28,052 nt of DNA from a virus (lineage: Duplodnaviria; Heunggongvirae; Uroviricota; Caudoviricetes): IMG/VR virus record IMGVR_UViG_2534682331_000010. One strand, 5' to 3'. The first letter of the stretch is position 1. Each line of letters begins with the position of its first letter. Positions 21,001-24,000 of this stretch are shown here, in pieces. The position numbers are program-made.

Positions 21001-24000
21001 GTCTTCAAGCAACCGGATTACCGAATCGCTGATACTGTTTTGCAGTTCACGAGCGCAGAGAATACGCACAGGCTGCCGGCGCGCCGCTTCAACAAGCAGC
21101 CTCGCAATTGCCCATGACTTACCGCTACCTCGACCGCCTTTGGCGACTTTGTAGCGATGCGCCTCAATGAACGGTTCAAAGATAGGATTAATCGAGGTCA
21201 TTTTCCAAATAGAGTGCTCATCGGTGATGTTTCAATCTGGATTGCGCCGCCGTCTTTGCCTGTTAGCTCGTGATCAACCTTGTCGCGCCATTTATCCTTC
21301 TGTCGGTTCTTAAGCCAGAAAATGGCAGCGGTTGTATCAGGCGGGTAATACTTCTCAAGCGGAGTTTCGACAATTCTGTTTTCAATAACACGAATATCGA
21401 TGTCTGGAGCCACGAAGCCCATAGCGCGTTGATAAAGACGATCACTAACTTCTGCATCAGCGACGGCCTTACCCTTTTTTATGGACTCCGAAAACTTAGG
21501 ATAATCAAGCTTCCACTTGTTAATAGTTGACTCACTGACTTCGAAGAAATCAGCAAGCTCTGCATCGGTGTAGCCCAGCAAGCACAGTTTGCGTGCCTGT
21601 TCGGCGTACGCCTCTTGATACTTTGTTGGGCGCGCCATGTTTATGCTCCGGTAGTGAACAGGTCTAACGCTTCCTTCGATTTACGCACCGCTTCGATAGT
21701 GCGGGTCGTGATATCCGAATTAGCGCCGCCTGACTGGAAGTGAATTTTGAATAGCTCAAGCTTCAGCTCGTCAGTGCCAATGAATTGAAATGCTTCTTCT
21801 GCGGCTGCGTTCTGGTTCATGACCAGTTTGTAAATCTCTAACTGGAATTTCTGTTCTTCAGTCATGGGAATAATCTCTGCCATTGTTGGCTCCGTTTATC
21901 CGTTAAAAGGGATATCAGTTAAGTTATCCCGTGTAGGGTATAAGCCATTGTCGAGACCACTCATTGAATGGTCTCTGCAATAACCGATGTCTTTCCATCA
22001 GTCCGCCACCACAAAGAATCTTTTTTGCCATAAGGCTGGAGGTTCATCTTTCAGTGGCTGCCAGTGTTATTTCCCCACTTTCTGGCTTGGGTTGTTTCGC
22101 TGTACTGCCGTTAATTGGTGAGTCCGGGGATTACGGTTTGCCCGTGCTGTTCAAGGCGTTCAATTCTCGCCAGTAGCTGAGGCTTCTTAATTTTTCCCCA
22201 GCGATTAAGCAGGCGGCCTGACATACTGGCAACATCCTTCTCTTTCATGTACTCCAGCATTACGGCATTTCTCTCTTCTTCAAATTGACGATGACCAACC
22301 TGAAGCATGGCGTACATCCAGTTGAATGCGTTGATGTAAGCAATTTTGATACGCATTGCTTCTTTTTTGGTGTAGGACATAACCAAAAGCATCAACCCAT
22401 CCTTGCGGAGACGGTAGAATTTTTGCGGCTTACCATTCTGTAACTCATTGTTTTTATAGCAAAGCTCAAAGTTGAGCTTTGTATCAAACTCAGGAGGGCA
22501 AGCTTCTATGGTTCGTTCAATGTCACGAACCACGTTCTTCGGCAGCTTTCCAAATGCTTTTGCCACCATAAAAGAATCTGTAACCGGATCGTTGTTTGCT
22601 ACAAAAATTAGGTCTCTGAAATCTATATCGTTAACAACGGTTGGGTAGTTCATTGCGTCTTTACCTTTTAGAAAGATGAGCCTGTTCGCACAGAAAAGCC
22701 GTCCCCGAGATGGTCGCCACCATATACGGCAATTCTCAGGCTCAGCTTTCTGAAAGACTCGGGATTGTTACGCGCTGCGATGCGCGGTTTACTGCAGATG
22801 TAAAAAAGCCCCGCAAATGCGAGGCTAAATCCTGGTATTTGTAATGACTGGCTCTTATCTCAACGCAGCCCCTTACCGCGCGCCAGATGCTCAATATCAA
22901 GCATCAGCAATGAGATGTTTAATCTGGATTCACTCCAGAGGTGATCATCACCCTGTCTACAGAGCCAGATGTGAAGGATGATGAGTAAAATTATCGCTAT
23001 CATCGAAGGCATTGCGTCCTGATGTATTCCTGAAGCGTTCTCAGTGCTGTTTGGTCGCGGATAATTCCGCCCCGGATACCGAGAACGTTTCGTCCAGCAA
23101 CTGGAGAGAGTTCGACGGTGGCATCATTGCCCATGCCGGAGGCGCTGGAGGCTTCGGCTGAGGATGGCACAGGGCATTTTCCTTTGACGAGCACCCTGCC
23201 ACCATTACCAAGCTTGCGCCGAAGAGCATCATTTTCAGCTTTCGCATCAGCTAACTCCTTCGTGTATTTAGCATCGAGCGCAGCAACATCACGCTGACGC
23301 TGATGCATGTCAGTAATGATCGCGTTCGCCTTCTCCAGTTCACTGGCTTTGTTATCGCGCTGCTCTTTGTAGGCGATGGCGTTATCACGGTAATGATTAA
23401 CAGCCCATGACAGGCAGACGATGATGCAGATAACCAGAGCGGAGATAATCGCGGTTAACCTGCTCATTGCTGACCCCACAAACAGACTTCACGCTCAATC
23501 TCACGGCGAGTCATCAGCCCTTTCCATTGCTTACCGCCAGCGTATGTCCAGCGACGTAGCTGGTCACATGCGCCTTTGATATCGCCCTGGTTTATTTTGC
23601 GAAGAAGCGTCGATGTTCTGAAATTTCCAGCGCCCACGTTGTAAACGAACAAGTAAAGAGCGCCGCGCGTTGTTTCCGGTATATCAACTTTTATGTACGG
23701 GTTAATTTGTCTGGCGACCGTGGCAAGGTCTTTATTCAGGAGGGCTTTGCATTCTGCTTTGGTATACGTTTTACCGAGCATGATGTCTTTTCCTGTATGC
23801 CCGTGACATACAGTCCATACACCAACAATATCTTTGTATGGTATGTAGCTGACACCTTCCAGACCATCGTTACCACTTGGGCCAGTGATTAACACTGATG
23901 CTATAGCAATTGCTCCGCCACCAATAGCAGCAGCAACGGCTTTTCGTAATGATGGAGGCATTATTCACCTCTCGCAGCCTTGCGCTTATCTTCTTTAATC

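Follow-up and report, generated by a model that had tools for sequence, protein, structure and literature searches.

A portable terminator and structured leader RNA precede interchangeable accessory genes in lambdoid and P22-like late operons

Introduction

Homing endonuclease genes of T4-type phages, such as I-TevI, segB, and mobE, are restrained by transcription terminators and by hairpins that sequester the ribosome-binding site (RBS) (PMC2988022). In the Salmonella prophage Gifsy-1, read-through of a terminator at IsrK produces an mRNA that cannot be translated before it has been opened by an RNA interaction, and the end product is toxic (PMC4825925). Terminators with unknown roles also exist inside the late operons of P22-like phages, and a study of phage L proposed that they cause partial termination or stop transcription begun without antitermination (PMC8022706). 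Small-RNA sequencing of P22-infected Salmonella has listed an 89-nt RNA, P22F, that ends 6 nt before the start of rha, was checked by reverse transcription PCR, and has "no known function" (PMC13397905; Noncoding RNA 2026). Here we analyze the interval between the i-spanin gene Rz and the accessory gene rha in a P22-like/lambdoid prophage (IMG/VR record IMGVR_UViG_2534682331_000010; 28,052 nt, the whole of which is called the window), whose nearest relatives are Sf101 and CUS-3 and whose late genes lie on the minus strand. In this interval an intrinsic terminator is followed by a conserved structured leader RNA that extends to the rha start codon, and together they form a portable 5′ cassette found before interchangeable accessory genes in lambdoid and P22-like late operons.

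The closest precedents for this cassette are the T4-type terminators and hairpins (PMC2988022) and the read-through mRNA of IsrK (PMC4825925). As in the T4-type cases, where a potentially harmful DNA-binding or nuclease gene in a foreign operon has a terminator close to its 5′ side and a very stable hairpin that involves or abuts its RBS (PMC2988022), the cargo of this cassette includes HNH and GIY-YIG-like genes. In contrast to those cases, no late promoter inside the leader hairpin bypasses it, the sequences are unrelated, and the leader is a single conserved family of ~150 nt, with an extra long-range pairing, that is reused before unrelated genes. The leader also differs from IsrK, because it has no similarity to the Rfam IsrK model and we found no promoter dedicated to a short RNA. 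The genes of the IsrK locus are orf45-anrP, and its cargo is an antirepressor. Sequestration of the Shine-Dalgarno (SD) sequence in a structure, where a crossing helix could trap or release it, is familiar from the T4 gene 32 leader, E. coli rpsO/S15, and the Mu com-mom hairpin. Unlike in classical H-type operators, in the leader described here a 5′ tail pairs with the apical loop of a 27-bp hairpin, and no binding protein or trigger is known.

Three late-strand modules fill the interval between Rz and rha

The interval extends from the Rz stop codon (TGA, 23000-23002) to the rha start codon (ATG, 22651-22653). A preliminary description of the window had correctly placed a 346-nt gap at 22654-22999 and noted, again correctly, that it holds no open reading frame (ORF) of 60 aa or more. 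It had also called this DNA apparently non-coding. Instead, 140 nt of the gap are part of an annotated 50-aa ORF, another 148 nt (22654-22801) are a conserved structured RNA and not a spacer, and all 346 nt are accounted for by three modules on the late strand:

22860-23012, minus strand: 50-aa ORF (ORF50) with a hydrophobic N-terminal segment, annotated as WP_001139676.1 by the Prokaryotic Genome Annotation Pipeline (PGAP)
22802-22826, minus strand: intrinsic terminator with an 8-bp stem (6 G-C pairs), an AUUU loop, and a U-tract
22654-22801, minus strand: structured leader RNA of rha, whole element of 148 nt (~150 nt), ending in the rha SD region

The leader recurs before many different genes

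The leader (22654-22801) is found at 82-100% identity in 150 phage records, whatever gene follows it. Its window type is present in 916 of 5426 complete E. coli genomes, and a pattern scan of one genome per species detected this type in 17 enterobacterial genera. In each of the eight RefSeq records listed, the annotated features beneath the window-type leader were "none". Similarity between copies stops at the end of the terminator on one side and at the ATG of the next gene on the other, and the mosaic boundary of rha with respect to other phages likewise falls exactly at its ATG. ORF50 with the terminator, the leader, and the downstream gene recombine independently, with boundaries at these two points. 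The genes that follow include several Rha types, KilA-N, T5orf172/MUG113 (GIY-YIG-like), ANT, and HNH_3 (+AP2), and the gene that precedes the cassette is mostly Rz. In Klebsiella phage RothC (L360, 695-854) and E. coli phage CharmingMan (L362, 693-848), the leader and an HNH gene are located between Q and the holin gene, which puts the cassette at the very start of the late operon and not after Rz; RothC has tRNA genes with Q.

Two deep sequence types of the leader exist, type 1, which the window carries, and the P22 type, and some phages have two copies. Second, diverged copies within one phage locus score 40-86 bits:

L153, 331-469: second leader copy
L087, 8505-8635: second leader copy
L006, 2854-3007: second leader copy
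L118, 11102-11252: second leader copy
L230, 4501-4653: second leader copy

Four of these copies, in L153, L087, L006, and L118, precede an ORF, and three of the four follow a terminator-like hairpin. The ORF in L153 is of the KilA-N type by its N-terminal similarity to the KilA-N cluster, and those in L006 and L118 are putatively antirepressor-like and HNH-like, respectively, when read by eye. When metagenomes were scanned for more diverged versions of the window type, most matches were variants already seen or due to chance.

Leader variants are separated by single-base indels, which rules out that the leader encodes a protein. These indels also break a 44-aa ORF on the plus strand (22710-22844), helix-turn-helix-like and listed by some phage records as encoding a hypothetical protein (gene 63 of g341c, for instance), which runs antisense through the terminator and was rejected. 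We also discarded an upstream ORF within the leader (AUGGUGGCG..., 18 codons), the ATG of which is missing from the HK620/phi80 variant. No promoter-like site was found on the late strand of either the window or phi80, and neither has a sigma-70 promoter inside the leader on that strand. The consensus for IHF, WATCAANNNNTTR, does not occur in the gap, and its two matches elsewhere in the window are at chance level.

Covariation supports a long hairpin crossed by a second helix

The fold was evaluated with three alignments. A1 is a MAFFT alignment of 63 non-redundant copies, with its structure from RNAalifold; A2 is fitted to R1, a covariance model built from the window-type leader, and includes diverged copies; and A3 is an independent MAFFT alignment of 18 diverse copies. 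The elements of the predicted structure are as follows:

22771-22786, minus strand: P0, hairpin CGCGC-AUCGCA-GCGCG (RNAalifold), with both-side changes in 3 of 4 pairs in A2; also in P22
22758-22764, minus strand: 5′ strand of P1, UCCCGAG, just 5′ of the anti-SD, pairing with 22703-22709
22664-22757, minus strand: long irregular hairpin of 94 nt, consisting from base to tip of P5 (UCUUU:AAAGG, anti-SD:SD), P4a (AGAAAG:CUUUCU), P4b (GAGCCUG:CAGGCUC), AGAA:UUCU, P3 (GCCGU:ACGGC), and P2
22710-22723, minus strand: P2, apical hairpin AUGGU-GGCG-ACCAU, with 3 of 4 pairs covarying in A1; the GGCG loop is kept in the P22 type
22703-22709, minus strand: 3′ strand of P1, CUCGGGG, part of the apical loop region, after P2 and before the 3′ strand of P3
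22685-22691, minus strand: conserved bulge of 7 nt (GUGCGAA) in the 3′ arm, separating AGAA:UUCU from P4b; GUGCGG in the P22 type
22664-22668, minus strand: rha SD region, AAAGG, forming the 3′ strand of P5

The leader folds more stably than shuffled sequence (z = -4.0), and the long hairpin is the minimum-free-energy fold in every variant class, at -43 to -59 kcal/mol. A1 has 95.6% of its cells paired and a covariation score of 0.105, compared with 0.069 for shuffled alignments (0 of 500 reach the A1 score); most of its pairs are invariant, partly because the search patterns had fixed them. Pairing rises to 98.2% of cells in A2, where 27 of 33 pairs have changes on both sides, a result matched by none of 500 shuffles. 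Slid controls, in which the 3′ partner was moved by 1-3 columns, left 39-52% of cells paired and at most 6 both-side-changed pairs. The upper stem covaries in A3 as well, with AU:GC at 9:9 and GC/CG/UA/AU at 7:4:4:2. By BLAST the P22 leader looks unrelated; R1 matches it at 67.5 bits (E = 9e-15) and also matches the leaders of ES18, Stx2-1717, Ss-VASD, RothC, and CharmingMan, together with the second copies listed above. For the window, the R1 score is 156.9 bits with the late strand, compared with 21.5 bits with the opposite one. This difference, together with the G-U pairs in the helices, identifies the late strand as the RNA strand and led us to reject an antisense-strand RNA.

The SD bases form a conserved helix, P5, with an upstream anti-SD. 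Pairs of P5 are kept in 96.7-98.4% of cells and show both-side changes, for example CCUUU:AAAGG compared with CCUA:UAGG. Mean predicted probability that the SD is unpaired is 0.24 in native leaders and 0.43 in shuffled ones. The second helix, P1, is a pairing of 6-7 bp in the window that crosses the long hairpin. Of 62 copies, 58 have it with 5 bp or more, and its sequence comes in no fewer than 12 versions, among them CGAGAG/CUCUCG, CCAAGA/UCUUGG, CCACCGA/UCGGUGG, CGUCGA/UCGACG, and CACAGAA/UUCUGUG. Its mean helix score is 5.6 for cognate strands, 4.2 for non-cognate strands, and 3.5 for shuffled strands. P1 may be either a pseudoknot or an alternative fold, and by our own estimate it could about replace the energy of P5 and P4a.

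No Rfam 15 model, including those for sar, IsrK, c4, riboswitches, and ribozymes, matched the gap at its gathering score. At E ≤ 10 only chance matches driven by the terminator appeared, none of them on the leader, and P22-type copies gave no match at E ≤ 1. As far as these tools show, the leader is an undescribed RNA family without an Rfam model; cis-acting leaders, the general kind to which it belongs, are known, and its crossing helix is unusual. Among other RNA classes considered, an RNA thermometer is unlikely, as the hairpin is far too stable (-40 kcal/mol), and a type III toxin-antitoxin, a group I intron remnant, and a put-like antiterminator RNA do not fit by the order of their parts or for want of model matches.

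The terminator is conserved ahead of the leader

The preliminary description had noticed a minus-strand terminator hairpin at 22802-22825, which is accurate to within 1-2 bases. Its stem, AGCCUCGC/GCGGGGCU, occupies 22826-22807 around the AUUU loop and is followed by UUUUU at 22806-22802. The terminator has a folding energy of -14.1 kcal/mol (z = -3.0 relative to shuffles). Within the late operon, it comes after the lysis genes and before rha and the terminase genes. One terminator-like site was observed in 600 nt where 0.4 ± 0.7 were expected, so the count is at chance level and the case for a real terminator rests on its conservation. The sequence upstream of the leader occurs in 101 distinct contexts, of which 84 contain a hairpin and T-run, with more than 30 versions of the stem and loop in which pairing is kept (e.g. 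GCCUCGC/GCGGGGC, GCCUGAC/GUCGGGC, GCCCGG/CCGGGC, and GCCAGC/GCUGGC). The GenBank records of epsilon34, phi80, and ES18 already mark a terminator at this position.

Like other intra-operon terminators of lambdoid and P22-like late operons, this one is a canonical hairpin with a U-tract in a single late unit downstream of Q. Unlike isolated intra-operon terminators, it is coupled to a specific leader RNA and a variable accessory gene, as in the 84 of 101 contexts above. In lambdoid and P22-like phages, such terminators are read through by polymerase modified by Q (gp23), an established part of lambda biology. Because the Q gene is upstream of the gap on the same strand, read-through by Q-modified polymerase would be the standard expectation here too.

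A small open reading frame follows Rz

ORF50 is the remaining module. The same ORF is gp67 in the epsilon34 record, with a noted similarity to Sf6 gene 65, and it matches the phrog_11822 profile over residues 1-50 of 50 (E = 1.3e-36); it has no Pfam match. Its fourth codon is an ATG at 23003 that gives a 47-aa product, overlaps the Rz stop codon as ATGA, and is the start used by many gene callers. The fetched loci hold 129 full-length ungapped copies, none of them with an indel and one with a stop codon. All copies are closely related. Of their variable sites, 15 are synonymous and 22 are not; variants that recur within codons 1-19, in the hydrophobic part, are synonymous, and four non-synonymous ones there are each confined to 1-2 copies. 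The family is narrow, with 63 of 65 protein matches named E. coli and phage copies in Shigella and Salmonella phages, and it is optional, as phi80, ES18, and P22 pass directly from Rz to the terminator. ORF50 is probably a small membrane-protein gene of 47 or 50 codons added to the lysis cassette, and its translation may be coupled to that of Rz through the ATGA overlap.

P22F is the long hairpin of a P22-type leader

The sequence of P22F is the long hairpin of the P22-type leader, which R1 recognizes at 67.5 bits. It is therefore the P22-type copy, just upstream of rha, of the element that the window carries as a type 1 variant. P22F was reported as an isolated small RNA, and the family, the conserved structure, P1, and the variable gene slot were not described (PMC13397905). 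Two annotated rha starts lie inside the leader. In P22 (BK000583, L237) the annotated GTG is at 1076 and the conserved ATG at 1146, 70 nt downstream; in phi80 (L004) the annotated start at 1535 falls in the leader hairpin, with the conserved ATG at about 1500, ~34 nt downstream.

Proposed function of the cassette and alternative explanations

From these features we infer read-through by Q-modified polymerase, translational repression, and possibly switching. Judged from sequence, the terminator and leader probably confine a risky accessory gene to Q-antiterminated late transcripts and limit its translation; the fair confidence we have in this explanation applies jointly to all parts of the three-part junction. 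The terminator would stop polymerase that Q has not modified, and only Q-antiterminated late transcripts would reach rha and the head genes. A cargo gene encoding a DNA-binding protein or nuclease, and therefore potentially harmful, would thus stay silent unless late transcription is on. In the transcripts that pass the terminator, the basal helix of the leader would pair the rha SD with the anti-SD, so that translation could be limited or gated by SD occlusion. P1 could act as a tertiary lock, or it could form an alternative open state that frees the SD by opening P5 and P4a. The long hairpin might also persist as a stable RNA fragment. A more ambitious version of this proposal, which we regard as doubtful, is that the leader is a new class of regulatory RNA in which the P1 pseudoknot locks a kinked hairpin into a genuine tertiary fold, that it senses a protein, a metabolite, or transcription speed, or is processed to a trans-acting RNA, and that it gates a mobile family of KilA-N/Rha/HNH/GIY-YIG-type genes across Enterobacterales.

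Several observations weigh against the proposal that the cassette gates its cargo gene. Nested folds in which P1 is forced are 12-26 kcal/mol less stable than the hairpin, and in the models P1 and the full hairpin cannot obviously coexist. P5 consists of only 5 weak pairs. Predicted SD occlusion is modest, and in the window copy itself the probability that the SD is unpaired is 0.44, no better than the 0.42 of shuffled leaders. The strongest covariation figures come from the model-fitted alignment A2 and about a dozen diverged copies. The reported ends of P22F may be approximate. For the ORF50 part of the junction, the 15:22 ratio of sites among close relatives makes the coding evidence moderate only.

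One alternative is that the leader serves chiefly to supply a trans-acting small RNA, a fragment cut from the late transcript that targets other phage or host mRNAs, or its own read-through mRNA as for IsrK in Gifsy-1. Infected cells and vesicles contain P22F as a distinct species of 89 nt, and its authors themselves drew the analogy to IsrK (PMC13397905), where terminator read-through gives a translationally inactive mRNA (PMC4825925). We nevertheless find a primarily trans-acting role unlikely: the hairpin is bracketed by neither a promoter nor a terminator, the leader is always found directly at a start codon whose SD it contains, it has no known target, and neither IsrK nor any Rfam model resembles it. 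The discrete P22 fragment would also be explained if the long hairpin were a processing or stability signal, for example a site for RNase III or RNase E, that punctuates the late mRNA between lysis and head genes with no translational gate. Its stack of helices, ~27 bp, has the right size for RNase III, and RNase E processes homing-endonuclease transcripts in T4-type phages (PMC2988022). This explanation leaves the conserved P1 unaccounted for, as well as the constant presence of the SD in a basal helix with compensatory changes, and by our own reading the ends of P22F are not opposite each other in the helix, unlike cuts made by RNase III. Processing in place of a translational gate appears distinctly unlikely.

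Conservation could in principle operate on the DNA, with the leader a recombination linker or co-conversion tract dragged along with mobile accessory or homing-endonuclease genes and having no function as RNA. Mosaic boundaries exactly at the leader ends, HNH and GIY-YIG-like genes among the cargo, and deletion remnants such as L136 are all consistent with a linker. A linker would not, however, predict compensatory changes in nearly every helix, pseudoknot-type pairing, or strand-specific G-U pairs, and of the three rivals left (small RNA, RNase signal, and linker) it is the least compatible with the covariation; we consider it very improbable. Least probable of all, to the point that we set it aside, is that the gap is no more than spacer DNA with a terminator in it, possibly left behind when a gene such as bor was lost. 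The preliminary description had raised the possibility of a lost gene, with bor at the equivalent position, and suggested comparison with related prophages as a check. Lambda and DLP12 do carry bor directly after Rz/Rz1, the same map position, and the gap lacks an ORF of 60 aa or more. Yet the whole 346 nt belong to modules conserved among many phages, and the annotated ORF, the terminator, and the leader recur in related phages. A tblastn search over 22600-23050 with a presumed lambda Bor sequence gave nothing at E ≤ 100, and no bor annotation is present at this place in the related records examined. The bor gene encodes a lipoprotein, lies on the opposite strand, and has its own expression in the lysogen. 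In contrast, the cargo here is on the late strand without a promoter of its own; the sole plus-strand promoter-like match for a bor-type promoter (23038-23065, 9 of 12 positions) is inside Rz, and the plus-strand ORFs of the gap are interrupted by indels in relatives.

Part of the junction was known before, as the terminator is annotated in other records and ORF50 is an annotated hypothetical gene. The leader is unannotated in the sampled RefSeq genomes, yet is among the more widespread structured RNAs of enterobacterial prophages. It provides P22F with both a family and a structure, and it suggests a testable role for at least one of the unexplained terminators inside late operons. The rha starts in the P22 (BK000583) and phi80 records need correcting. 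The leader also offers a handle on the Rha, KilA-N, ANT, and HNH accessory genes, which influence phage growth and probably prophage induction. Notes in the phi80 and ES18 records state that Rha is named for blocking growth in IHF-deficient hosts, an effect reportedly described by Henthorn and Friedman in 1995.

Surrounding genes and variation at the cassette

Several copies of the locus differ in the sequence around or within the cassette. An insert of ~45 nt (...AGTACCGCTGGCGAATTTTCTGTATTCGCA...) separates the terminator from P0 in L168, L212, L214, L224, and L225, which are Kluyvera, Atlantibacter, and Pseudescherichia-type copies. The leader of L136 breaks off after CUGUGCGAA and continues directly into the orf25 region, a junction that appears to have been left by a deletion of the cargo gene together with the 3′ portion of the leader. 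Loci that lack the leader and rha (L010, L046, and L066) have ORF50 and a different terminator-like hairpin joined directly to a homologue of the orf25 region. Because such cassette-less phages make this direct junction, the leader and its gene behave as one unit of insertion or deletion. In the window, the homologue of the P22 orf25 region follows rha at 21884-22110 and contains a 28-aa ORF (21961-22047, minus strand). The orf25 region of P22 has been reported as another small RNA, "P22G" (PMC13397905).

The genes around the interval, and one RNA elsewhere in the window, are as follows:

26036-26455, minus strand: Q antiterminator gene (PF06530)
24765-25847, plus strand: porin gene, 360 aa (PF00267, E = 3.6e-152), between Q and holin on the opposite strand
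23961-24221, minus strand: P21-type holin gene
23464-23961, minus strand: lysozyme gene
23000-23479, minus strand: Rz i-spanin gene (PF03245 and phrog_13)
23041-23247, minus strand: Rz1, inside Rz
22111-22653, minus strand: rha (PF09669, Phage_pRha, and PF10549, ORF11CD3)
Beyond rha, minus strand: DUF2560 gene, then the small and large terminase genes
5440-5507, plus strand: sar RNA (RF00262, 81.8 bits), which in the immI region of P22-like phages regulates ant as an antisense RNA

The opposite-strand porin gene has the same arrangement as nmpC in DLP12 and lc in PA-2.

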